A DNA stretch of 64,000 nucleotides from Candidatus Babeliales bacterium (GTDB lineage Bacteria; Babelota; Babeliae; Babelales; JBFXEV01), in assembly GCA_050179755.1 (NCBI GenBank), contig JBFXEV010000001.1:937994-1001993 (forward strand), given 5' to 3'. Shown here piece after piece: positions 3,821 through 63,008 of the stretch. The first letter of the stretch is position 1. Each line of letters opens with the position of its first letter. The translations under genes and the position numbers were made by a program. The notes beneath the pieces are model-generated. The model did not search any database. It was not told the DNA's origin and saw only the letters and a program-made list of their open reading frames with translations.

Positions 3821-4408
3821 TTAGAAGACTTCGCGTTCGTCAATGACTGTTTGATCAGCAGACGTATTATTTGCTTCAGGGCAATTGTTTAAAGTTGTAA
3901 GTAAATTAATTTGGTGTTCAATAGCGGTTTGTTCGTCTTTGTGCTCGGTAAGCGCTTGCTCTCTATCTTGTATTATTTCTGCTAATTGTGCTGCTTTTTT
4001 AGCATCTGTAAGAGCAATAGTGCGCATGGTAGGAATTGCTTTTTCAAGCGCAAGAATTTTTTTTGTTGTTTGTTTAAGTGCAGCATGCAATCCATCTAAT
4101 GTTTTTTGTTTTGACTTTCCGTATTGTTGCATTAAGAGATTGCGTTGTGCACACAGACTTTTAGCTGAATTTAATGTTTCAAGATCATGATTACCGCTTG
4201 TCAAAAATATTTCAATTTGTCGATCGAGACTTATGATTTGGGATTCAAGGGTACTTGGCGTTTGTGGTGCCTTTCGATCGGCAATAGGCTTTTCTTGAAT
4301 CATAAGTATGCTTGTATCCACTTGATCCATTGCGTTATTCAAAAAGCTTGCTAAAAATAAAAATGAAATCCATGTTAAAACTAATAAAGTATTAGAGCTG
4401 TATTTCAT
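3821..4408 (-). CDS. secreted coiled-coil hypothetical protein (signal peptide|MDQ)
   Basis: GGGAG SD before ATG 4408; hydrophobic leader ending NNA-MDQ; heptad-rich. Confidence 0.75.
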   Translation of the reverse strand: MKYSSNTLLVLTWISFLFLASFLNNAMDQVDTSILMIQEKPIADRKAPQTPSTLESQIISLDRQIEIFLTSGNHDLETLNSAKSLCAQRNLLMQQYGKSKQKTLDGLHAALKQTTKKILALEKAIPTMRTIALTDAKKAAQLAEIIQDREQALTEHKDEQTAIEHQINLLTTLNNCPEANNTSADQTVIDEREVF

Positions 4409-4443
4409 TTGATTTCTCCCTACATGTGGTAGCTCATTAAAAA

Positions 4444-4464
4444 GGGGTATGAACATCATACCCC
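4444..4464 (-). terminator. hairpin/intrinsic terminator between orphan genes
   Basis: GGGGTATG...CATACCCC stem followed by a U-tract on the minus strand. Confidence 0.5.
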
Positions 4465-4508: not shown

Positions 4509-5516
4509 CTACTTAAACCAGCCACGAGCTGCTTGGATTCCTTTTGCTCTAGCAAGTGCTTGATCCATTTCTTCAATTGCATTTTGCAAGGTAGTAATAT
4601 CTCGCTCTTTTTGTAGAAGTTGTGTTCTTAAATCAATTTTTATTTTTGAATCTTTTTCTTCTGGAATGGTTGCGCGAATGGCTGCAGCTTCATCAGTTAA
4701 TGTTTGTTTTTCACGTTCTTTGGCTGTGCGGCGTGCATCTAATTCCGCAATTAAAATCTCTTTTTCACGTTCTATGAGTGATCTTGTTTTAGTAACTTCT
4801 TGCATTTGTTGTTGAAGTTCACTAAGTGAATCTTTGGTTTGAGCATCTGCAGTTTGCAATGCTTCTTGATCTTTTATGAAAGGGCTAATTTCACCATTTA
4901 ATTTTGCCAAAGCTTCTTTTTTTTCTTGTGCTTCTTGTGCTCTTTTTGTTCGTTCTGCGGCAACTTTAGCAACAAGAGGAGGTTCAAGTTCTTCTCGTGA
5001 GAGATTGGCGAGTGCTGGCTCGTGCATGGCAAATTCCACAATTGCCTCATGTACGCGAGCGGCAGCAATTTTTTTACCTTTACACTTGAAGCCCTCGGTA
5101 ACTAGCGCAGTTTGTTCTTGTTGGAGCGCTTTCATTCTTGCAGTAAGAGGGTCTGTTTTTGTAGCCAATGCAAGGAGTGCAGCTGTGTGCCTTTGGCGTT
5201 CTGCTGTGAGTGTGGCTTCTTGCGCCAGTAATGGTCCAAGAATGGTTGTTTGTTCTTGTATTCTTTTTGTGCAGCCCAGTATACGGTCTGCAAGAGCCAT
5301 AGGTGTGAACGTGTGGCTCCTTACTTCTGTAAGCCATTGTTCTTCTAGAGATTTTATAGCTAGAGCTTCTTGAGCTTCCTTCCGCTGAGTTACTTTTGCG
5401 GCTATTTGCGCTGCAAAGGAGGTAGATAATTTTTTGTTGTCTTGGTCCATACTCTTTGTATGTGTTATAACTGAACCGAGCAGGATTAATGCACTATACT
5501 GTTTAAAAGAAAGCAT
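4509..5516 (-). CDS. secreted coiled-coil hypothetical protein (signal peptide|MDQ), paralog of 5581..6804
   Basis: 335 aa ORF, AAGGAG SD, hydrophobic leader, A/E/K/Q/L-rich heptads. Confidence 0.8.
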   Translation of the reverse strand: MLSFKQYSALILLGSVITHTKSMDQDNKKLSTSFAAQIAAKVTQRKEAQEALAIKSLEEQWLTEVRSHTFTPMALADRILGCTKRIQEQTTILGPLLAQEATLTAERQRHTAALLALATKTDPLTARMKALQQEQTALVTEGFKCKGKKIAAARVHEAIVEFAMHEPALANLSREELEPPLVAKVAAERTKRAQEAQEKKEALAKLNGEISPFIKDQEALQTADAQTKDSLSELQQQMQEVTKTRSLIEREKEILIAELDARRTAKEREKQTLTDEAAAIRATIPEEKDSKIKIDLRTQLLQKERDITTLQNAIEEMDQALARAKGIQAARGWFK

Positions 5517-5580: not shown

Positions 5581-6804
5581 CTATTTAGCACCAGAATAAT
5601 AACCAGCAAGCCATTTTGCAGTACCATAGGTCATATCTGCTTGTGCACGTGCTGTTCTAAGATTTGATATGGATTGTATTACTTGGGCAAGTTGTGCCTC
5701 GGTTGTTTTTTTGCTTTCAAGCAATGTAATCTTTGTTTCGGCATCTTTTTCAGTAGAAATTTCAGTTGTAAGATTGGCAACATCTTTTTTAAATGTTTCT
5801 CGTTGTGCTACTGCTAATTCAATAGATTGATCAAGCGCTAACAGTAATTTTTCACGGTCAGTTTGAGCAAGAATTTGTGCATTTTTTGCTTTTTCAAGTA
5901 ATTGTTCTAGTTCTGCTTGTTTTGCTTTTGTTTCTTGTTGTGCAGTTTCTACTTCTTTAAGTTGCGCAATAACAGGATTCAGCTTTTGTTCATGCGCTTG
6001 TTTTGCAACTGCAAGTACGCCAAGTTGAGTGGCAAGGGTTGCTTTTTTTCCAATTAATTTTGAAGCATAATTTGGCACTAATTCTTCACGTGTTACATCA
6101 GCAAGCGTTTGTTCATGCAGCTTTACATATTTCATTGTAGTATCCACACAACGATTGAGTGCTGCTTCTTGTTCGGCAAATTGAGCTTCTTGCGCTTGTA
6201 AATCTGCTTCATCTTGTGCAAGTTTTATAGCCTGTTCATCGAGAGGGCCTTTTACGGTCAACAAAGCAGCATGTTGTGTAGAAAGTGCTTCTTCTTTAGC
6301 TTTTAATGTAGCTTTTGCAGCGTCACGAGTTTTTTGAGTAGTTGTCTGTGCTTGGATATGGCGATCACGGCGGTGTACGCGAGCCACAATTTGATTTAAT
6401 CTGATAACTTCATCAGTAGTTTCTACTTCATCTTCAGTGCCAGATAAGTAGTCTGCTTCTAAATTTGCGTCTACTTTATCGGCGGCTGCTGTTGCTGAGT
6501 ATCTTGCCCATAATGCTTTGCGATCTGCTATTTTGCTTTTTGTCCGCGCAAGTGGATTTTCATCAGTTTCAAGAACGATTGAAGCATTACACGCTTCTAA
6601 AAGTTGTGCGCGTGTAGCTTCTGTAGGTAACCATGCTATGGTTCCTTGATGCTGTGCAACTTCAACGTTGCTTAATCTTGGTTGTAATGAGGCATATTTA
6701 TCTACAACTTCTGCAACTGGTGCAGCACCTTCAATTGGTTCCATTGCTTTTACACCAGAAACTGCTGTCGATAATAACAGAAGTGACATATAACGCTTAT
6801 TCAT
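5581..6804 (-). CDS. secreted coiled-coil hypothetical protein (signal peptide|MEP)
   Basis: 407 aa ORF, GAGGAG SD, leader ending VKA-MEP, long coiled coil. Confidence 0.8.
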   Translation of the reverse strand: MNKRYMSLLLLSTAVSGVKAMEPIEGAAPVAEVVDKYASLQPRLSNVEVAQHQGTIAWLPTEATRAQLLEACNASIVLETDENPLARTKSKIADRKALWARYSATAAADKVDANLEADYLSGTEDEVETTDEVIRLNQIVARVHRRDRHIQAQTTTQKTRDAAKATLKAKEEALSTQHAALLTVKGPLDEQAIKLAQDEADLQAQEAQFAEQEAALNRCVDTTMKYVKLHEQTLADVTREELVPNYASKLIGKKATLATQLGVLAVAKQAHEQKLNPVIAQLKEVETAQQETKAKQAELEQLLEKAKNAQILAQTDREKLLLALDQSIELAVAQRETFKKDVANLTTEISTEKDAETKITLLESKKTTEAQLAQVIQSISNLRTARAQADMTYGTAKWLAGYYSGAK

Positions 6805-39717: not shown

Positions 39718-40365
39718 ATGAATAATCAAGAAACAACACAACGTGACGGCAAGAAGTCTGAAAATCGTTATGGTCAAAACCGTGGTGGTGGTAAACCTGG
39801 CGCTGGACGCCCTGGTGCAAAAGGTTCAGACGACCAAAAGCCAGATGAAAAAGATAAACAACGCCGAGCACGTAAAGTGTCGGAATATGGTAAACAGCTT
39901 GAAGAAAAACAAAAAGTTAAACATTCATACGGTATGCGTGAAAAACAGTTCCGTAGATTTTTTGACTTAGCGTTTAGATCAGAAGCTGCAACAGGTGAAA
40001 AGCTATTAAGTTTGCTCGAGCGCCGCATTGATAACGTGTTATATCGTTTAAAATTTGCAGTAACACGTGCTCAAGCGCGTCAAGTTATTGTGCATGGGCA
40101 TGTTGCAATTAATGGCAGAAGAGTGTCATCTCCTTCCGCACTTGTTGGCGTGGGTGATACTATATCCTTCTTACCTCAAGTTGGTAAAAAACAGGCATTT
40201 GTAGAGCAAGTAATTGAAAAGCGCCTTAATATTGGTATTAAAGTCCCTGAGTGGCTTGAGTTGAATAAAGACGCACGCACTGGCAAAGTATTACGCGAGC
40301 CAGTACGTACTGATATTCAAAATCCAATTGAAGAGCATTTAATTGTTGAATTATATTCTAAGTAA
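39718..40365 (+). CDS. rpsD: 30S ribosomal protein S4 with atypical N-terminus
   Basis: SEYGKQLEEKQK, LLERRIDNV, ARQVIVHGH, LIVELYSK. Confidence 0.96.
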   Translation: MNNQETTQRDGKKSENRYGQNRGGGKPGAGRPGAKGSDDQKPDEKDKQRRARKVSEYGKQLEEKQKVKHSYGMREKQFRRFFDLAFRSEAATGEKLLSLLERRIDNVLYRLKFAVTRAQARQVIVHGHVAINGRRVSSPSALVGVGDTISFLPQVGKKQAFVEQVIEKRLNIGIKVPEWLELNKDARTGKVLREPVRTDIQNPIEEHLIVELYSK

Positions 40366-40411
40366 TTTCAACGCATTGCAATATGCGTGAATTGAGATAT
40401 TGAGGAACTTT

Positions 40412-41458
40412 ATGGACACTAGGGAGTACAGACCGCTTACCATCCCAAATTTACAGTGGGATAACAAAACATTAACTGAATCATTTGGTCAGTTAATTGC
40501 CCAACCGCTTGAGCCCGGCTTCGGGATCACGCTTGGTAATGCCATTAGACGTATTTTGTTAGGTGGTATTGAAGGGTCAGCGGTGACCTCCGTCATAATC
40601 AAGGGGGTTAATAACGAATTTTCACCTTTACCGGGTGTTGTTGAAGATACTATGCAAGTAGTGCTCAATATAAAAGATATCGTTGTTCGCAATAAAACAG
40701 GCAAACCAGGCACTATGCGTGTGGTTGCAAAGGGTGAGAAGACCGTTCGCGTAAAAGACATTGAAGCGGATGAACATCTTGAGTTGATTAATAAAGAGCA
40801 TATTATTGCTCATGTGGCTCCTGGTGGATCACTTGATATTGAATTTTTTGTTGAAGCTGGGCGTGGGTATCAATCAGCGCAATGGCCAGAAGGCAAATTA
40901 TTGCAACCAGATGATCGTATGTACCTTGATGCTATGTTTGCACCGGTGCGTAAAGTAACCTTTGATGTTGAAAAAACACGTGTTGGTGAAAATATTGATT
41001 ATGATAAATTAATACTCAGTATTCATACTGATGCATCTGAAACACCAGTTGAAGTGTTGCATTATGCCGTTTCAGTACTTAGAACGCAATTGCAAAATTT
41101 TCTAAAAGATACAGAAATACCGTTTAATGATATATCTAAGGTTCCTCAAAATGAAGAACTGGAAGAGTTGCCATATCATGTGCCAGAGTTGACTATTAAA
41201 GGCATTCCTGTGAGTGTTCTAGTCAAACCAATTGAAGAGCTTGATCTTTCAGTGCGTGCACATAACTGTCTTCTTAATGAAGGTATTAAACGTGTGTTGG
41301 ACTTGGTAAATTTGAGTGAAGACCAAGTAATTAAAATGAAGAATTTTGGACGAAAATCGCTCAATGAAGTTAAAGAAGCACTTAAGGTTCATGGTCTTGC
41401 TCTTGGGCTTGATATTCCTGAATCTGAGTTGCGTCAACTCATTAAAAGCAATCAGTAG
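40412..41458 (+). CDS. rpoA: RNA polymerase subunit alpha
   Basis: PLEPGFGITLGNAIRR, GVVED, LSVRAHNCL, NFGRKSLNEV; GAGGA SD before ATG 40412. Confidence 0.98.
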   Translation: MDTREYRPLTIPNLQWDNKTLTESFGQLIAQPLEPGFGITLGNAIRRILLGGIEGSAVTSVIIKGVNNEFSPLPGVVEDTMQVVLNIKDIVVRNKTGKPGTMRVVAKGEKTVRVKDIEADEHLELINKEHIIAHVAPGGSLDIEFFVEAGRGYQSAQWPEGKLLQPDDRMYLDAMFAPVRKVTFDVEKTRVGENIDYDKLILSIHTDASETPVEVLHYAVSVLRTQLQNFLKDTEIPFNDISKVPQNEELEELPYHVPELTIKGIPVSVLVKPIEELDLSVRAHNCLLNEGIKRVLDLVNLSEDQVIKMKNFGRKSLNEVKEALKVHGLALGLDIPESELRQLIKSNQ

Positions 41459-41474: not shown

Positions 41475-41831
41475 ATGAAACATCAAATTGATAGAAGTAA
41501 ATTAAATTTAAAAGCGCCTCACCGCAGAGCTATGCTTCGTAACCAAGTGATTCATCTTATTGAGAATGGTCATTTGATAACTACAAAAGCTCGTATCAAA
41601 GAAGTGCGTCGCATGGCAGAAAAATTGGTTACTTTGGCTCGCCAAGGGAATACGTTCAGCGTTCGCCGCAAAGCTAAGATGGTATTGCCATACAAAGATA
41701 CAGCGCTTGATAAGTTGTTCAAAGAAATTGCTCCGCAATACACTGAACGACCAGGTGGGTATACAAGAATTATTCCTCTTGGCAAGCGTGTGAGCGATAC
41801 TGCGACAATCGCAAGATTGGAATGGGTGTAA
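41475..41831 (+). CDS. rplQ: 50S ribosomal protein L17
   Basis: HRRAMLRN, AEKLVT, RPGGYTRI. Confidence 0.97.
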   Translation: MKHQIDRSKLNLKAPHRRAMLRNQVIHLIENGHLITTKARIKEVRRMAEKLVTLARQGNTFSVRRKAKMVLPYKDTALDKLFKEIAPQYTERPGGYTRIIPLGKRVSDTATIARLEWV

Positions 41832-41856
41832 AATAACCTGCATATCGACGCAGCAG

Positions 41857-41883
41857 CCCGGCGTAGCTTTTAGCGAAGACGGG
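41857..41883. repeat. REP-like palindrome
   Basis: CCCGGCGTAGCTTTTAGCGAAGACGGG. Confidence 0.65.
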
Positions 41884-41917
41884 AGCGTTTTTAAGCCGGT
41901 TATTAAGATTAAAAATT

Positions 41918-41973
41918 TAGGCATTTAGAGATTTCCTGTAGTGAGGGTTTTCTCTAGGTGCCTATTTTTTTTT
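41918..41973 (+). terminator. intrinsic terminator ending the alpha operon
   Basis: TAGGCATTTAGAGA...TCTCTAGGTGCCTA followed by T9. Confidence 0.8.
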
Positions 41974-42108
41974 GGTCTTTTCGTTTAAATATCTGGGCAG
42001 CAGGTTCGCCAACCTGAAGCAATGCTCTTATTAAAAATTGGACCAAATACCAATAAAAGAGTATTACCCCCCCCCGGCCCCTGTTAATAATACACATAGA
42101 AATTATTC

Positions 42109-42136
42109 TTGACAAAAATAACCCGATCTATAAACT
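42109..42136 (+). promoter_or_regulatory. sigma70 promoter of the orphan gene cluster
   Basis: TTGACA-16 bp-TAAACT. Confidence 0.55.
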
Positions 42137-42214
42137 AATATTATACAGTTACGCAAAGCTGGTCTTTCCCTGTAAGACGGGGTAAAAGACTACAAACTGG
42201 GAGGTTACAAAACT

Positions 42215-42562
42215 ATGCGTATTTTAATTAATTCACTATTAAAATTAACGTTATTGGCACTCATTATATCTGTGGGCAGTGTTACTGCTATGGAATATGG
42301 GGATTTGCCTCAAAGTAATGCAGCGCCAACTATTGGCTCATGGGCATATGCTTTTATGCAGCCCTCAACTCCTGCAAAATCAGTAAAAGCAACAAATAAG
42401 GCACTGTATGCAGCTCCCGTAGCTGCTGCCGCGCCCGCATTATTATCTAAAAAAACTATGCTCATATTGGCAGGCGGATTGCTTACGCTATGGGCAGTTA
42501 AAAAAGTATACAATTGGATGTATAGTAAACCGAAGAATGGAGAAGTAACATGTTATCAATAA
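42215..42562 (+). CDS. secreted orphan (signal peptide|MEY) with C-terminal TM anchor
   Basis: GGAGG SD; leader ending VTA-ME; KK-TMLILAGGLLTLWAV-KK. Confidence 0.75.
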   Translation: MRILINSLLKLTLLALIISVGSVTAMEYGDLPQSNAAPTIGSWAYAFMQPSTPAKSVKATNKALYAAPVAAAAPALLSKKTMLILAGGLLTLWAVKKVYNWMYSKPKNGEVTCYQ

Positions 42563-43518
42563 AAAAACAATTATTAGTGCTCGCACTTACGGCAAGCGTT
42601 GCAGCACCAGTTTGCGCAATGGACCAGCAAGATTCATCAAGCTTGATCAATTGGAAAACCGGAGCAGTAGCTGCTACCGCGCTTGTTATAGGATTAGGCT
42701 GTGCTGCAAGATGGCTAACTTTTGGTACACCAGTAAAACAATTAGATACACTTGAGCAGTCAACTAAGGTTGCCGGTCAAGCAGATCAAGGCCAGGCTGC
42801 GCAACAACCTTTGCAAGAAGATAAATCGCAAGCACTTCAACAAGATAAAACTCAAGATGCACAAGCGCAAAAGCCGGTTCAAGATGTAGATGCTCAAAAT
42901 CAGCAGCCATCAGCAACGGCAATAAAGCGTCGCCCAGCGGGTCAAGCCGGCAGAAGGTTGCCTACAAGAAAGCCTGTAAAAACGCAGGATGAGCTTAATT
43001 TGGATGTAGAGGCTCCTGTTCAAGATGAACCAGCAGTTGAACCAAACGCAGCTCAACCAGCCGCTCCTGCGACCCAAAAACCTTTAAATGGAAAAGGTTA
43101 CGGAGTGAATCTTGGTGATCTTACAGCAACTAAATTAAAGAAAACAGTAAAAACTACCGCTACAGTTCCAGCAAAAGCTGCACAACCTAAGCCGCTTCCA
43201 CAAGTGCCAACGGCAAAAGAAGTGGTTGTTGAACAACCTACTGCAGATATGCTTGAACAATTTGCTCAAGAAATAGAGGATTTTAAAGCAATATCCCTTG
43301 CAAATCAAAAAAGCGAATTAGCAGCTACTGTGCAAGCATATGTTACACAACCAATACAAGATACTCAAAATCTTCTTAAAGTGTACGTGCAAATATATGG
43401 TGAGCGTGTAAAATCAAATGCGTTGGCCATTGCAATGACTAAGTTGTTTGCAACAAAAACGCCAGCACAAAGAAGTGCAGAATTCAATAACATTAAGCAA
43501 ATTCTTGGTGTGCGGTAA
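42550..43518 (+). CDS. secreted orphan (signal peptide|MDQ) with signal anchor, low-complexity linker and C-terminal helical domain; candidate effector
   Basis: Leader ending VCA-MD; WKTGAVAATALVIGLG; C-terminal domain shared with 44011..44610. Confidence 0.8.
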   Translation: MLSIKKQLLVLALTASVAAPVCAMDQQDSSSLINWKTGAVAATALVIGLGCAARWLTFGTPVKQLDTLEQSTKVAGQADQGQAAQQPLQEDKSQALQQDKTQDAQAQKPVQDVDAQNQQPSATAIKRRPAGQAGRRLPTRKPVKTQDELNLDVEAPVQDEPAVEPNAAQPAAPATQKPLNGKGYGVNLGDLTATKLKKTVKTTATVPAKAAQPKPLPQVPTAKEVVVEQPTADMLEQFAQEIEDFKAISLANQKSELAATVQAYVTQPIQDTQNLLKVYVQIYGERVKSNALAIAMTKLFATKTPAQRSAEFNNIKQILGVR

Positions 43519-43533
43519 CAGAGAAATATTGAG

Positions 43534-43565
43534 ACATGCCACTCGCTGAGAGTGGCATGTTTTTT
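43534..43565 (+). terminator. intrinsic terminator
   Basis: ACATGCCACTC-loop-GAGTGGCATGT followed by T-tract. Confidence 0.75.
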
Positions 43566-43589
43566 AATGACACAGAGGTTTATAACATT

Positions 43590-44009
43590 ATGCTTACTTC
43601 AATAATAAAAAAAATAGTAATGTTTGCTTTTATTATGGGGATTGTGGCTCCTATTACAGCAATGGATTCTCATCAAGATTCGCGCTGGTTTGGATGGAAG
43701 TCAGCAACAGGGGCTACCGCATTAGTGGTAGGTCTTGGAGCTTGGTGGTTGTATACTCATTGGAATAAGTCGGTATCAAAGCGAAATAGTACTACAAAAA
43801 GTACTCGTGCAGCAACAAAGCCATCAAAGCGCCAAGTTTCGCCCAACGCCAAAACTCAATCAGTCCAAGATTCCTCTCCTATGGTGACCACTGCGCAAGC
43901 GCCAATAATGGCATATGAAGATATAACAGATGAATATCTTGATAGAGAAATAGCTCAACTAGAACGTGAAATCGCTGAGGATAAAGCTAGAGAAAACAAA
44001 GGGAAATAA
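43590..44009 (+). CDS. secreted orphan (signal peptide|MDS) with signal anchor
   Basis: GAGG SD; leader ending ITA-MD; FGWKSATGATALVVGLGAWWLY then basic tract. Confidence 0.75.
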   Translation: MLTSIIKKIVMFAFIMGIVAPITAMDSHQDSRWFGWKSATGATALVVGLGAWWLYTHWNKSVSKRNSTTKSTRAATKPSKRQVSPNAKTQSVQDSSPMVTTAQAPIMAYEDITDEYLDREIAQLEREIAEDKARENKGK

Positions 44010-44010
44010 C

Positions 44011-44610
44011 ATGGTATCACTATATAAAAAATTACTTATGTTTGCACTTATCGCAAGCATTGTCGCTCCTCTTTCTGCAATGGATTCACAAGAAACTACG
44101 TCATCTGGATTTGGATGGAAAGCTGGCTTAGGTTTAACTGCCGCCGTGGCAGGAACCGGGTTGGCAGCATATTTGGCTTATTCTTCGTGGAACAGGCCAG
44201 CAACTAAGCCTGTTGGATGTGTGCGCCAAAAGTCGTCAGTGCGTTGGGCTACGCCCACAGCAGCGGATATTGCTCAAATGGAACAAGAAGAGCGTGCAGC
44301 ACAGGATGCTGCATTACAAGAGTTAGAAGGGCAAGCTGCATCGCAAGAATCGATGATTCTAGAAGATTTTAGAAGCGCTAATGCCCAGACACAAAAGATA
44401 GAGATTGCAAAACAAGCATTTCAATATATTGATTCTCCAGAACAAGAAACTGAAGATCTGATAAGGCAGTATGTTCAAATCTATAGTCACCGATTAAAAT
44501 CACCAGATCTCGATATTGCAATGAATCGCTTATTTGCGGCAAAGGATAAAGCGGCAAAGACTATTGAATTAACCAAGATCAAGCAAATGCTTGGCTTAGT
44601 TTATTACTAA
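44011..44610 (+). CDS. secreted orphan (signal peptide|MDS) with signal anchor; paralog of 42550..43518
   Basis: Leader ending LSA-MD; FGWKAGLGLTAAVAGTGLAAYLAY; YVQIY..R.KS..L.IAM..LFA.K shared. Confidence 0.8.
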   Translation: MVSLYKKLLMFALIASIVAPLSAMDSQETTSSGFGWKAGLGLTAAVAGTGLAAYLAYSSWNRPATKPVGCVRQKSSVRWATPTAADIAQMEQEERAAQDAALQELEGQAASQESMILEDFRSANAQTQKIEIAKQAFQYIDSPEQETEDLIRQYVQIYSHRLKSPDLDIAMNRLFAAKDKAAKTIELTKIKQMLGLVYY

Positions 44611-44630
44611 TTTAACGAGTATATAGTATT

Positions 44631-44666
44631 AAAAACGTGCCACTGGTCAAAAGGTGGCACGTTTTT
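44631..44666 (+). terminator. intrinsic terminator, similar to 43534
   Basis: AAAAACGTGCCACT...GGTGGCACGTTTTT. Confidence 0.8.
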
Positions 44667-44765
44667 ATTTTATACTATTACAAATAGAAAAGCTTGTGTG
44701 GTATGCTAAAAGTAGAATGAGCTGTTCTGTTGCTCTTAGATGGAAACATTAATGATGGAGGTAGT

Positions 44766-45278
44766 ATGAAGAATATCGTTATGTCTATGGCAGTTGTAGT
44801 TGGGTTTAGCTTTGTAGCTTTAAGGGTGCAAGCAGCCACAGAAAAAATGGTCGATAATGAAGTTACTTTTGAGCTCTATAATAAAAGTAAAGCAGCATTC
44901 AAGACAAATCCTACCATAAAAGTATATGGGGGGCGCATACTCAAAGGCGATATAGGTTCAGCAGATAAAAAGACTGAGCCGCTTTATGCCAACGTGTCTC
45001 GCGCACAAATACGAGTTGATGATGCCAGTAAATTTTTAATCTATCTAGAGATTCTGCATCCACGCGGCACGTATACATATACCATTCGTCCAGGCCATAA
45101 CAAAGTGTTAATTTCATTTGATCCGGAAAAATCTCCTGCAGTATATCCACAAACGGGGCCACTTAAAGGATTGCTTGGCAAAACTGAGTCTGGTCTATCA
45201 TTAAAAAATAATGTGTCTGCTGCACAAATTACAGAAGGTGATCTGCGTAGTGCTCTTCAAAAAATAGGTATTGGCTAA
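44766..45278 (+). CDS. secreted hypothetical protein
   Basis: GGAGG SD before ATG 44766; signal peptide ending VQA. Confidence 0.7.
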   Translation: MKNIVMSMAVVVGFSFVALRVQAATEKMVDNEVTFELYNKSKAAFKTNPTIKVYGGRILKGDIGSADKKTEPLYANVSRAQIRVDDASKFLIYLEILHPRGTYTYTIRPGHNKVLISFDPEKSPAVYPQTGPLKGLLGKTESGLSLKNNVSAAQITEGDLRSALQKIGIG

Positions 45279-45286
45279 AATGAGTA

Positions 45287-55638: not shown

Positions 55639-56670
55639 TTATTCATCCTTTTCTTTTTTTATCTTGTCTGATGCGTGTCCAGCTTCATGTAACTTTTTTA
55701 ACCGATCTTGTGCTTTAAGTACTGTATAAAATCGTAGAGCATATAAATTTAAGCTTTCAGGAACTTCATTATTCGTTAAAGCAGTTGAAGCACTTCTTAT
55801 GTTTATCTCAGCTGTAAATGGTGAAGGTGAGCTGTGCTGCACGGTGGCTAAAATATGTTTGGCAGTACCGGCAAGTTCAATAGCCTTTTTATCGGCTTTC
55901 GTTTCGCTTGATATTTGGCAACTTTCGTTTCGTACAAAATGCAGTAAAGCTAGACAGGGAAAAAATGGTAGAACAATAAGAGGATTTAAAAGTAGCGCGA
56001 CTGCCGTAGCACCCAGAACTCCTCCTGCCGATTGTGTATTTATTTTAAATTGCTGAACGAGGCCATCATCATTTCTGGAATATGCCATGGAAATACGGGC
56101 AATTTCGCGTTCAATCATGCCAAGAAGTATATGTGTATGCTTGTTTTGAGTGGGAGTGGTTTGTGCTTCATGTTTTTCTTGTTTTGCAAGTTCATACGTT
56201 GTGCTGGGTAGCGCAATTGCGTGGCAAATATAGCCATCTATAAAATGAGTAACCGAAGCAGCCGTAAGCGCATCAAGATGCACGTTGCGACGATCGTTAG
56301 GACTTTGCTTATAAAGGCAGAGCCAGTTAGCTTTGCTTTCTGGGCTATTTAGTTTTGCTTTTTGGGCTACTGTAGTAAGGTGTTCATCTTGTTCAAGTTC
56401 GGTTAACCGTTCATCTTCAATACTTATTCCTTGTTGTGCAAATAGCGTTTGAACTGTAGCATATCTTTCACTTTCAAAAGGCATAAATCTTTGCTTTCCT
56501 AGACAAGTGCTTACAATAGTTCTTTCCAAATTGCCACTAAGCAATAACCCGCTTAATCTGCTTGCACAGGAAGTTGTAGGTTGAGGCATGAGTGCCTGAG
56601 GCTCCATAGTATAATTTGACATGCTTATTATTAAGCTAAGGAATGAAATTGTGTGTAGTGCTTTGTTCAT
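55639..56670 (-). CDS. secreted orphan (signal peptide|MEP), possible inactive M48-like peptidase
   Basis: GGAG SD; leader ending NYT-MEP; REIAR, TM segment, ETKADKKA. Confidence 0.7.
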   Translation of the reverse strand: MNKALHTISFLSLIISMSNYTMEPQALMPQPTTSCASRLSGLLLSGNLERTIVSTCLGKQRFMPFESERYATVQTLFAQQGISIEDERLTELEQDEHLTTVAQKAKLNSPESKANWLCLYKQSPNDRRNVHLDALTAASVTHFIDGYICHAIALPSTTYELAKQEKHEAQTTPTQNKHTHILLGMIEREIARISMAYSRNDDGLVQQFKINTQSAGGVLGATAVALLLNPLIVLPFFPCLALLHFVRNESCQISSETKADKKAIELAGTAKHILATVQHSSPSPFTAEINIRSASTALTNNEVPESLNLYALRFYTVLKAQDRLKKLHEAGHASDKIKKEKDE

Positions 56671-61427: not shown

Positions 61428-61454
61428 GAAACACATTCATTTTTGAGGCATAGT

Positions 61455-63008
61455 ATGAAAAAAAATAGGTTATTATTATTAGTAAGTTTAACCGCAGCAA
61501 TGCCCAATATTGCTGCACAAGATGTAGAAGATCTTGTTGGGAATGAACAAGAAGTAACTAAGCAACAACTTGAACAGTTTTTGGCCGAACGACCAACAGA
61601 AAAAGTGGATGAATCGGTCGAGGAACAGGATGAATCTGATGATAGTTTGGCAATAGCAATGGCTGATGATGCTGATGAAACAGATGTAGAGCCGGAAGTG
61701 ACTCAAGAAAAGGCTGTGGCTGATGAGCAACCAACAGAAATTGAGTTGCCAGAAACGCCTGAGCCGTTTGGGCCTCCTGCTTCAGTAACCCAAGAAAAGA
61801 AAGAGCAAGAAGCTCCTGAGCCAGCTGCCGTAAGTCAAGCAGATGATCAAAGCGCTACTCAAGTAACCACAAAAGAATCAAAGCCTGTAGAGTCTGAGGC
61901 AAAGCCGGTAGAAGATGCGCAAAGCACATCAGAGCAAAAGCCTGAAGCAAGCGCCACGCCAACTGAAACTCCAAAGTCAGAAGAACCAGTGCAAAAATCA
62001 CTTGCACAACCACAGGTGACTGCAGCAAAAGAAGTTCCTGCTCCAGAAACAAAACCTGCACAAGCGCCCGTTGCAACCTCTGCACCAGCAGCGCAAGCTC
62101 AAGAATCGTTACTTGATACTATTGATATAGAAGAGGGTGGCAATTGGGTGCTTAAGCGCAAAGCATTGCAAGACACGGTACGAAAAATTGAAGACATCAA
62201 TGCGTTGTATGATGATATTCGCGATACCAACATTGTGTTTTTACAAGGCATTAATACCGTGGACGTGTTGTTTACACAATTTAGTTATGATGTTGGCTTA
62301 GATCTTGGTAAAGTCGATCAATTAGTGCAAGACGTATTGCATCATCTTGAATCTGAGCGTGAAGAAACTGGCGATTTAAGTGAAGCCGAACGTGATATTT
62401 TGCAAAAAGCCGAAGATCGTAAAAAAGAAGTTGAGCAATTGCGCACTAATATTCATGACATATGGCAAGCATATGCGCAACTTAAAGAAGCGCGCATGCT
62501 TAATGATGAACAAATTATTGAAGCAGATAGAATAAGGAAGCAAGCATGGCGGAATTTCCGCATGATCGAGCGTGTTTTAAACGAAGTAAAAGCGGAAGAG
62601 CTATACCATGAAACGGTACAATTATTTGAAGCACTGCAAACCAGTTATCGTTATCTGCAAACGCGTTTGATTCCGCATTTTGAACAGTCAATTAAAACGA
62701 TTCAAGAGAAAATGCAAATGGCCAAAAAGCAATCAGAAGAATTGCAAAGCCAGGGCGTACTCTTGAAAGAAGAAGCCATTATTGTGGATAAATTGGAAAA
62801 AGATCAGTCAGTAGATCAAGATCAGATGCAAGCTCCTGCGCCAACTGGCTGGCTTACGCGGATTAAGAATGTGCTTCTGTCCCCGTTCCATGCACTGGGT
62901 TCTCTTTGGGGTTGGATTACTGGATCATCAAGCGATATGAGGAAGTACTTGCCAGAAGAGCAAGAATTATCTGAAAATCATGAATCTAAGCAACCAGAAG
63001 AGCTTTAA
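61455..63008 (+). CDS. secreted acidic low-complexity/coiled-coil hypothetical protein
   Basis: GAGG SD; MKKNRLLLLVSLTAA leader; E/P/A/T-rich N-half; helical C-half. Confidence 0.8.
   Translation: MKKNRLLLLVSLTAAMPNIAAQDVEDLVGNEQEVTKQQLEQFLAERPTEKVDESVEEQDESDDSLAIAMADDADETDVEPEVTQEKAVADEQPTEIELPETPEPFGPPASVTQEKKEQEAPEPAAVSQADDQSATQVTTKESKPVESEAKPVEDAQSTSEQKPEASATPTETPKSEEPVQKSLAQPQVTAAKEVPAPETKPAQAPVATSAPAAQAQESLLDTIDIEEGGNWVLKRKALQDTVRKIEDINALYDDIRDTNIVFLQGINTVDVLFTQFSYDVGLDLGKVDQLVQDVLHHLESEREETGDLSEAERDILQKAEDRKKEVEQLRTNIHDIWQAYAQLKEARMLNDEQIIEADRIRKQAWRNFRMIERVLNEVKAEELYHETVQLFEALQTSYRYLQTRLIPHFEQSIKTIQEKMQMAKKQSEELQSQGVLLKEEAIIVDKLEKDQSVDQDQMQAPAPTGWLTRIKNVLLSPFHALGSLWGWITGSSSDMRKYLPEEQELSENHESKQPEEL

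Follow-up and report, generated by a model that had tools for sequence, protein, structure and literature searches.

A protein with actin-type motifs in a disordered linker, encoded behind the rpoA operon of a Dependentiae bacterium, a candidate host-directed scaffold

Introduction

The Legionella protein MavH carries a WH2-like helix, a capping protein interaction (CPI) motif and a C-terminal PI(3)P-binding domain, in that order; it inhibits actin polymerization in solution and drives polymerization on membranes, with recruitment of capping protein tuning filament density (PMC10381072). A WH2 motif spans about 17-20 residues, in which an extended LKKT stretch comes after a short amphiphilic helix (PMC5792643). 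CPI motifs follow the consensus LxHxTxxRPK(x)6P (PMC10381072, PMC5491179), of which the R and the K are required for function in MavH (R73/K75; PMC10381072). The tail of amoebal CARMIL (Acan125/p116) holds verprolin-like, acidic, PxxP (class I myosin SH3) and capping protein-binding elements (PMC5491179). These and other published systems are described here from excerpts of the papers cited. In this study, a 64-kb stretch of contig JBFXEV010000001.1 (the window) was analyzed, and we report on one of its genes, which encodes P0001, a protein with three short motifs (motifs 1 to 3; Table 1) in a disordered linker. We put the chances at about even that P0001 is an exported, membrane-associated motif scaffold, whose WH2-like element would bind host G-actin, whose KPLPxxP motif would bind an SH3 protein and whose basic motif would bind a third partner.

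P0001 resembles MavH in belonging to a bacterium of the type found in amoebae and in combining a single WH2-type element and a second basic motif with a disordered segment and a putative membrane-targeting part. Unlike in MavH, the order of the motifs is reversed, and the anchor of P0001 would be N-terminal whereas the lipid-binding domain of MavH is C-terminal. MavH has a true CPI motif and no LKKT, whereas P0001 has LKKT and departs from the CPI consensus. MavH depends on a type IV system for delivery, whereas P0001 has a putative Sec-type signal peptide and a hydrophobic segment, and its phylum is reported, in the excerpts cited, to have type II secretion only. An exhaustive phmmer search (1.84 billion representatives) found family members only and no homology to MavH, MavH itself not being compared directly. 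The CARMIL tail contains the same kinds of parts as P0001 and is a possible host-side template for imitation; unlike it, P0001 has its parts in another order, lacks the leucine-rich repeat (LRR) and pleckstrin homology (PH) body and deviates from the CPI consensus. When a profile of the motif-bearing segment was searched at E<=10 (7999 candidates, longer proteins being sought), five family members were recovered, and nothing from eukaryotes that could be a donor or a look-alike. Similar parts, rearranged and with no homology beyond the family, are what convergent motif mimicry would be expected to produce.

Cultured Dependentiae are obligate intracellular parasites of protists, both amoebae and flagellates (PMC4378268, PMC6561590). 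Babela massiliensis grows in vacuoles of Acanthamoeba, with type II as its only detected secretion system and signal peptides on 79 of its 126 ankyrin proteins (PMC4378268). Chromulinavorax destructans has signal peptides on 44% of its coding sequences and on 78% of its ankyrin proteins, and vesicle budding is seen early during infection (PMC6561590). The TM6 core genes include those for type II secretion and the type IV pilus (PMC4776705). Host-manipulation proteins of the phylum appear in the excerpted genome descriptions only as lists of ankyrin-repeat proteins and ORFans (PMC6561590, PMC4378268), and WH2 and Dependentiae are nowhere mentioned together in the full text of Creative Commons papers in PMC and of bioRxiv, subscription journals lying outside that search.

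Results

Motif conservation in the linker

An earlier note on this DNA, made from the sequence without database searches, had singled out three peptides of P0001 as actin-regulatory motifs of eukaryotic type. The translation and the low pLDDT of the AlphaFold2 model (mostly <50 over residues 38-164) agree that all three lie in the disordered linker where the note had put them. It had also named in advance, as the outcome that would speak against it, motifs no better conserved than the linker around them; the motifs turned out to be far better conserved. Each 10-mer of P0001 was scored by its best ungapped BLOSUM62 match in four homologues (P0003, P0012, P0008 and P0009), an alignment-free measure; the sample consists of four to five homologues of one lineage that are 32-46% identical to P0001. 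Exactly three conservation islands were found in the linker, at residues 125-143, 176-205 and 208-221. The island maxima of motif 1 (32.75) and motif 2 (36.25) were each reached by 0 of 1000 shuffles and that of motif 3 (25.25) by 32 of 1000. The remaining 127 linker windows averaged 16.8 with a maximum of 21.5, while the profile maximum of shuffled linkers averaged 21.9; outside the islands, conservation is thus at shuffle level. The three islands are more conserved than the folded C-terminal domain, and the invariant columns of a six-sequence alignment are L188, L191, L196, K197, K198 and K214.

Short patterns in a low-complexity linker might also be chance resemblances without specific function. 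Among linker shuffles, 21% contain the pattern [RK]..P..P and 7.8% match an ELM-style WH2 expression; the former is also present in 50 of 1270 background Dependentiae open reading frames (ORFs). When the 178-residue linker was shuffled 20,000 times with its composition preserved, loose forms of all three patterns arose together once (5e-5), with the patterns set post hoc. Conservation is the stronger, and decisive, evidence compared with such counts in a single sequence. Because the linker stays at shuffle level except in three islands that coincide with the motifs, and these islands recur across five to six divergent homologues, the motifs are not taken as chance; this explanation is effectively refuted by the shuffle test for motifs 1 and 2, and for the block as a whole we regard it as very improbable.

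The WH2-like element

The second peptide of the earlier note, VNLGDLTATKLKKTV (residues 186-200, 43105-43149), is part of a longer element with the family consensus G-x-G-[YH]-G-[VI]-x-L-x-x-L-x-x-x-x-L-K-K-[TS]. L188, L191, L196, K197 and K198 are invariant in all six motif-bearing members, in each of which LKK[TS] follows the second conserved Leu by 4 residues within a disordered region. The only linker helix in the AlphaFold2 model, at residues 188-193, stands just before LKKT (low confidence, block pLDDT 56-58). Motif 2 therefore has the traits of a WH2 motif in a predicted short helix with hydrophobic residues and an LKKT in the disordered stretch behind it. The strict pattern, hydrophobic-xx-hydrophobic-x4-5-LKK[TSV], was present in 6/6 motif-bearers versus 6 of the 1270 background ORFs. 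Pattern and predicted anatomy make a WH2 assignment plausible.

Several results weigh against an actin-binding role. Pfam gave no WH2 match (PF02205) in any of the six motif-bearers at E<=1 or E<=10, in searches whose HMMER filters penalize short models such as WH2. A PDB profile search with the alignment of the motif block returned no WH2 chain (one irrelevant match, E 0.88), phmmer searches with P0007 and with the 32-residue element gave 0 matches each, and the ESM Atlas gave no usable feature match for residues 172-222, its structure rows being unrelated at TM<=0.42. The ELM-style expression is non-specific, since it matches 575/1270 background ORFs besides the shuffles mentioned above. The best-conserved piece of motif 2 is its Gly-rich lead-in (peak at windows 180-182), and this G-x-G-[YH]-G-[VI] stretch is no part of the described canonical WH2. 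A single WH2 alone usually sequesters actin monomers, and P0001 has one predicted WH2-like element per chain. A two-copy prediction of the C-terminal domain (score 0.03, mark 0.42) is evidence neither way.

These observations bear on another explanation, in which the protein would be host-directed and act as a scaffold for other partners (nuclear import receptors, kinases, trafficking adaptors or lipids), the likeness to LKKT being coincidental. The lack of a WH2 signal in profile searches fits it, as do the lead-in as the most conserved part of motif 2, the further acidic-hydrophobic mini-motifs of other members, and motif 1 as a K/R-rich basic stretch that departs from the CPI consensus. On the other side, the five invariant residues of motif 2 are the positions that WH2 needs, the predicted helix sits at the WH2 helix position, and the adjacent class I PxxP together with the MavH and CARMIL precedents, as excerpted, suits an actin context. 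We consider this non-actin explanation unlikely.

The basic motif and capping protein

The family consensus of motif 1 is [RL]-P-x-G-x-x-[GS]-[RG]-[RK]-x-P-x-[RG]-[KN]. The earlier note had compared this peptide with CPI motifs and had proposed that P0001 uncaps filaments. The comparison fails on the definition of CPI: LxHxT is absent from 5/5 members, which have unrelated residues at that place; RPK is present in 2/5 (P0003 and P0012), with RPA in another 2/5 including P0001 and LPN in 1/5; and the spacing to the closing Pro is 7, not 6, in 5/5. RPK.{6}P and the full CPI expression each occur in 0/19 family proteins. The capping protein reading is not supported, which counts against the actin-directed scaffold, and filament uncapping is unfounded because motif 1 misses the consensus in LxHxT, RPK and spacing. 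CPI motifs are said to tolerate "significant divergence" (PMC6249002), so that motif 1 may yet bind capping protein; capping protein, F-actin and acidic lipids are possible partners. Assignments as a tankyrase, amphiphysin or Gads-type SH3, or nuclear localization signal motif were compared with consensus patterns and rejected or left open, with inconsistent fits across the family.

The SH3-ligand motif and the acidic mini-motif

Class I SH3 ligands follow the pattern [RK]xxPxxP. KPLP..P was found at four sites in 3/6 members (P0001, P0003 twice, and P0007), in the variants KPLPQVP, KPLPAAP, KPLPQAP and KPLPMAP, in a disordered region and all fitting the SH3-ligand pattern. The narrower form [RK].[LVI]P..P occurs in only 4/1270 background ORFs.

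An acidic-hydrophobic mini-motif, DELNLD in P0001, recurs as [DE][DE][LF].L in P0012, P0008, P0004, P0015 and P0016, with one loose match in P0018, and is not among the conservation islands. Readings of DELNLD/DEFQL as a clathrin box or LC3-interacting region (LIR), made against consensus patterns, were rejected or left open for an inconsistent fit in the family. The short paralogues P0015 (14810..15229 in L001, the rpoA locus of a second Candidatus Babeliales genome) and P0016, and the window ORF 43590..44009, share an acidic tract, ...DELNLD..., and behind it T-P-E-F-F-E-[KQ]-Q-R and a coiled-coil-like tail, the window copy having T-D-E-Y-L-D-R-E in place of T-P-E-F-F-E-[KQ]-Q-R. The E-F-F core is presumably also like FFAT-type motifs. 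It resembles the CARMIL CSI consensus RxDEGxEEFFxKR (PMC5491179).

A family with exchangeable payloads

Relatives of P0001 were collected by the exhaustive phmmer search at E<=0.001 (13 including P0001), and a profile of the N-terminal module added six, for a family of 19. When 6113 ORFs, taken from the window and from 10 kb on either side of rpoA in 80 Dependentiae loci, were searched with a profile, family ORFs turned up in the window (three) and in L001 (four) and nowhere else, at both sites between rplQ and sbcC. A word-indexed search with P0001 recovered itself alone among 8000 candidates, and a scan of genome contigs with the family alignment (A3) gave 505 pattern matches and 0 confirmed relatives.

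All members share an N-terminal module made of a signal-peptide-like segment, a conserved acidic loop and a Gly/Ala-rich hydrophobic segment that ends with an aromatic Y..Y..W belt. P20, A23 and M24 are kept in 90-100% of members, W35 is invariant, D25 and S30 are kept in 90% or more, and the loop is of the type M-D-x-Q-E-S-S-W-F-G-W-K. What follows the module is a mosaic of a helical domain, a coiled-coil-like tail, a GH1 enzyme or the motif block. The helical domain of about 90 residues is present in 12 members (the rows of alignment A6); in P0001 it was modeled by AlphaFold2 as six helices (pLDDT 92.6, pTM 0.83). Of the 413 PDB matches that Foldseek returned at E<=10, none reached E<=0.001, and the best were designed or generic helical bundles. 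A complete GH1 glycosidase (PF00232, E 9e-76) is fused to the module in P0018 (L001 12708..14243, +), in the syntenic island, and this was the sole meaningful Pfam family among 11 relatives.

The motif block is carried by 6/19 members (P0001, P0003, P0012, P0008, P0009 and the fragment P0007), as a rule with the helical domain behind it. P0006 and P0014, the paralogues next to P0001, have no motifs in their sequences, as the earlier note had said of the one at 44011, and its idea of a swappable payload is borne out at the family level by the other payloads, such as GH1, on the same module. In a tree of the C-terminal domain, seven of nine inner branches are left unresolved, too many to tell a single gain of the block from swapping. 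We conclude that this is a small, fast-evolving, lineage-restricted Dependentiae family with exchangeable payloads on one putative export/anchor module. P0012 (motif-bearing) and P0013 (motif-less) are both listed with a 20,629-bp longest contig, and a second genome may hold both kinds.

A further observation concerns the cleavage site. Met-Asp or Met-Glu directly after the predicted site (...A|M-D/E) recurs in signal-peptide-like ORFans of this lineage. A crude scan found it in 9/87 window ORFs of at least 100 residues (one, UvrD, a false match), in 5/32 at L001 and in just 21/2223 at the other 79 Dependentiae loci. The carriers are 3821..4459(-), 4509..5516(-), 5581..6804(-), 55639..56670(-), 42215..42562(+) and three family genes in the window, and 11739..15946 in L001. 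It could be a lineage-specific sorting signature, or a trace of a signal-peptide cassette fused before former start codons.

Export and topology

Residues 1-23 of P0001 form a putative Sec signal peptide that is presumably cleaved. On hydrophobicity scales (apparent insertion energy and Kyte-Doolittle), the second segment of P0001 scored +1.5 kcal/mol summed for its best 17-mer, with a Kyte-Doolittle mean of 1.84; second segments across the family are marginal, with summed energies of +1.3 to +5.6 kcal/mol for their best 17-mers and Kyte-Doolittle means of 0.9-2.0. The loop has a net charge of -1 to -4 in 16/18 members (0 in P0014, +1 in P0012), and the 20-residue flank past the second segment is net-positive in 14/18 (+1 to +6), neutral in P0010 and net-negative in P0012, P0008 and P0018.

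Location is where the evidence bears hardest on a host-directed role. The positive-inside pattern predicts that the linker of most members lies in the bacterial cytoplasm and does not face the host; if the second segment is a stop-transfer anchor, linker and motifs would be in the bacterial cytoplasm. This topology is the main weakness of the host-directed interpretation. Nor is a route known for type II systems to bring proteins anchored in a membrane to a host. The motif-bearing sample is small (five full sequences and one fragment, in one narrow lineage), and the source genome was examined through the 64-kb window, with its secretion genes outside that scope. Two members suggest the opposite. 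In P0012, which has no credible second segment (+9.2 kcal/mol), motifs 1 and 2 follow a predicted signal peptide, and the GH1 fusion P0018 has the weakest of the marginal second segments (+5.6 kcal/mol) with a following flank of net charge -1. Since both have a signal peptide and no credible second segment, their payloads should be extracytoplasmic. On these predictions, export followed by membrane association appears more likely than a cytoplasmic location. The host-directed idea of the earlier note also suits the organism, which belongs to a phylum of intracellular protist parasites that export putative host-directed proteins; the signal-peptide-bearing candidates of that phylum make such a reading of P0001 reasonable.

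The same data could be explained by an inner-membrane scaffold on the bacterial side, comparable in architecture to ZipA or FtsN, with its short N-terminus in the periplasm and its disordered linker and globular domain in the cytoplasm. Its motifs would dock bacterial partners such as FtsA or MreB, which have the actin fold, or other envelope and division factors. The predicted N-out, C-in orientation (from the acidic loops and net-positive flanks above) and the AlphaFold2 helices at residues 4-23 and 35-53, which look like two membrane helices, favor it, as does the position of the gene cluster immediately after rpsD, rpoA and rplQ. Bacterial GH1 enzymes, one of which is joined to this module in L001, usually reside in the cytoplasm. 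The division machinery of Dependentiae is unusual and reduced, with FtsA and FtsZ kept (PMC4378268, as excerpted). Yet the second segments are only marginally hydrophobic, P0012 keeps its motifs without a credible one, and a housekeeping scaffold would not be expected in just two close genomes out of 81 syntenic loci, nor at 33-41% identity when its flanks are at 69-94%. LKKT and KPLPxxP also have no bacterial partner to our knowledge. We judge the bacterial-side scaffold improbable overall.

The locus and its surroundings

The window is bacterial DNA of about 40% G+C, on a contig of 1.53 Mb. Its RpoA is 94% identical to that of L001, which belongs to a Candidatus Babeliales metagenome-assembled genome, and 59-70% identical to those of 79 further loci, Vermiphilus pyriformis included, whose titles are mostly Dependentiae/TM6/Babeliales and otherwise just "bacterium" or other phylum names. 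By these comparisons the source organism is a Dependentiae (TM6/Babeliales) bacterium.

P0001 belongs to a compact same-strand cluster of four genes (42215..42562, 42550..43518, 43536..44009 and 44011..44610) in an operon-like setting. Coordinates of the cluster, of its flanks and of the parts of P0001 are given in Table 1.

Table 1. Features of P0001 and of its neighborhood, with positions in the window
Feature	Positions	Strand	Remarks
rpsD	39718..40365	+	With rpoA and rplQ, ends a long ribosomal-protein/rpoA operon
rpoA	40400..41458	+	End of the ribosomal-protein operon
rplQ	41475..41831	+	Last gene of the operon; followed by a 384-bp spacer and the four-gene cluster
C9 homopolymer tract	42067..42075	+	Some 34 bp ahead of the promoter-like -35 hexamer; membership of the system uncertain
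Promoter-like site (TTGACA, 16 nt, TAAACT)	42109..42136	+	10/12 consensus matches only; before the four-gene cluster
First cluster gene, 115 aa	42215..42562	+	13-nt overlap with the P0001 gene; 41% identity to L001 14463..14813
P0001, motif-bearing protein, 322 aa	42550..43518	+	Translation; Shine-Dalgarno-like GGAGA at 42539-42543, 6 nt ahead of ATG
Signal-peptide-like segment, residues 1-23	42550..42618	+	K5-K6 n-region, hydrophobic 8-19, P20-V-C-A23|M24
Acidic/Ser-rich loop, residues 24-36	42619..42657	+	M-D-x-Q-x-S-S-..-W-K, between the two hydrophobic segments
Gly/Ala-rich second hydrophobic segment, residues 37-55	42658..42714	+	Marginal hydrophobicity; putative membrane anchor
Q/P/A-rich disordered linker, residues 58-231	42721..43242	+	AlphaFold2 pLDDT block means 36-69
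Motif 1, residues 128-141 (RPAGQAGRRLPTRK)	42931..42972	+	In 5/5 full-length motif-bearing members
DELNLD, acidic-hydrophobic mini-motif, residues 147-152	42988..43005	+	Recurs as DELNL or DEFQL
Motif 2, WH2-like, residues 176-199	43075..43146	+	Lead-in, helix L188..A193, LKKT 196-199
Motif 3, KPLPQVP, residues 214-220	43189..43209	+	Class I SH3-ligand pattern [RK]xxPxxP
C-terminal helical-bundle domain, residues 232-319	43243..43506	+	Common to motif-less paralogues
P0014, 139 aa	43590..44009	+	Counted from Met at 43590; ORF opens at 43536
P0006, 199 aa	44011..44610	+	Family N-terminal module and C-terminal domain joined by a short linker; motif block absent
Terminator-like hairpin	44630..44667	+	15-bp stem then T run; closes the four-gene cluster
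Signal-peptide-bearing ORFan, 182 aa	44730..45278	+	Likely start at Met of residue 13; membership of the system uncertain

The first cluster protein has a signal-peptide-like N-terminus ending in ...VTA|ME and a hydrophobic segment near its C-terminus. P0014 consists of the family N-terminal module, a linker that is basic and rich in Ser/Thr/Lys, and a short tail resembling a coiled coil, and has neither the motif block nor the C-terminal domain. P0006 shares both the module and the C-terminal domain with P0001 (44% identity over 80 residues) and is 39% identical to L001 15380..15946. The ORFan at 44730..45278 lies between the cluster and the convergent sbcC and has no L001 counterpart. Searches of the five cluster proteins against Pfam and NCBIfam reached no cut-off and gave sub-threshold matches only (best E 0.01). 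A TTGACA-containing stretch likewise precedes the L001 cluster. The C9 tract, which is absent from the syntenic site in L001, is the sole C/G run of at least 8 in the window (2 overlapping matches versus 0.17 expected); it might be a slippage-prone switch, or a sequencing or assembly feature.

Between rplQ and sbcC (window 41832..45286, L001 11431..16023), the genes are 33-41% identical between the two loci, compared with 94% for the flanking L17 and 69% for SbcC. The two loci also differ in the genes they contain: P0001 and 44730..45278 lack a counterpart in L001, and the window lacks counterparts of the 283-residue protein and GH1 fusion of L001. In its fast divergence, its gene gain and loss and its stable flanks, the locus behaves like a host-interaction island.

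Other genes of the window were noted in passing. Ribosomal protein S4 (39718..40365, +) has an unusual low-complexity N-terminal segment of about 50 residues, rich in Gly/Lys/Arg/Asp, ahead of its conserved body. The ORF 61443..63008 (+) encodes another candidate exported protein, a 521-residue ORFan with a signal-peptide-like start, an acidic Pro/Glu/Ala/Thr-rich segment of about 230 residues and a helical C-terminal part, with no Pfam match at E<=1e-5. The adjacent genes 4509..5516 (-) and 5581..6804 (-) encode signal-peptide-bearing proteins of 335 and 407 residues with Ala/Glu/Gln/Lys heptad-like sequences, apparently long coiled coils, also with no Pfam match at E<=1e-5.

Discussion

The interpretation that we favor is an exported scaffold acting on the host. 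P0001 would be exported by Sec, like the putative host-directed proteins of the phylum, and would be held at a membrane surface, whether bacterial, of a vesicle or host-derived, from which its motifs would be presented to the cytosol of the protist host. There the WH2-like element may bind G-actin and, if dense on the membrane, might promote or organize actin assembly in the manner of Legionella MavH; the PxxP motif may recruit an SH3-domain protein such as a class I myosin or an Abp1-type adaptor; and the basic motif 1 may bind a third partner. Signal-peptide cleavage, host exposure and all of these binding partners are what we infer.

Other bacterial proteins offer partial parallels. Chlamydial Inc proteins have two hydrophobic segments close together near the N-terminus, behind which a long tail bearing host-binding motifs faces the cytosol. 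P0001 is like them in having two such segments and then a long tail. It differs in that its first segment starts at residue 7 and looks like a cleavable signal peptide, and in a conserved loop of 13-17 residues in 17/18 members (6 in P0012); phmmer gave no sequence similarity, and a type III system is unreported for Dependentiae in the excerpts used here. Chlamydia Tarp, Vibrio VopL/VopF, Burkholderia BimA and Listeria ActA likewise use disordered, host-mimicking actin-binding helices, often near proline-rich segments, and Tarp binds through a partly preformed helix (PMC10381072, PMC5792643). These proteins are type III substrates, autotransporters or surface-anchored, and they usually have tandem WH2 motifs or an oligomerization domain, whereas P0001 has one element. 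Unlike Tarp and MavH, the P0001 family keeps a canonical LKKT.

A bolder version, to which we give a low probability, is that the family represents a new lineage-specific export-and-anchoring module with exchangeable payloads, on which P0001 rebuilds the amoebal CARMIL tail by convergent mimicry. The module would comprise the signal peptide, the A|M-D junction, the W-rich loop and the Gly/Ala-rich helix; its payloads would be the WH2/PxxP/basic block, the GH1 enzyme, coiled coils and the helical bundle; and the parts of the tail that P0001 would imitate are a basic motif of CP type, an acidic patch, a verprolin/WH2 element and a PxxP for myosin-I. If so, the parasite could assemble actin, or form a cage of it, at its surface or vacuole, and a phylum without type III or type IV secretion would have evolved its own way to plant motif scaffolds on a host-facing membrane.

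Dependentiae are a widespread and almost uncultured phylum of protist parasites, for which the P0001 family is a concrete and cheaply testable candidate, offering three short peptides, invariant residues for mutants and natural motif-less paralogues as controls. If the proposed role is true, the family would be a further, independent case of the design seen in Legionella MavH, a WH2 plus a basic motif on a membrane. P0001 could show how Dependentiae touch the host cytoskeleton, and whether parasites that depend on Sec and type II secretion display membrane-anchored motif scaffolds.

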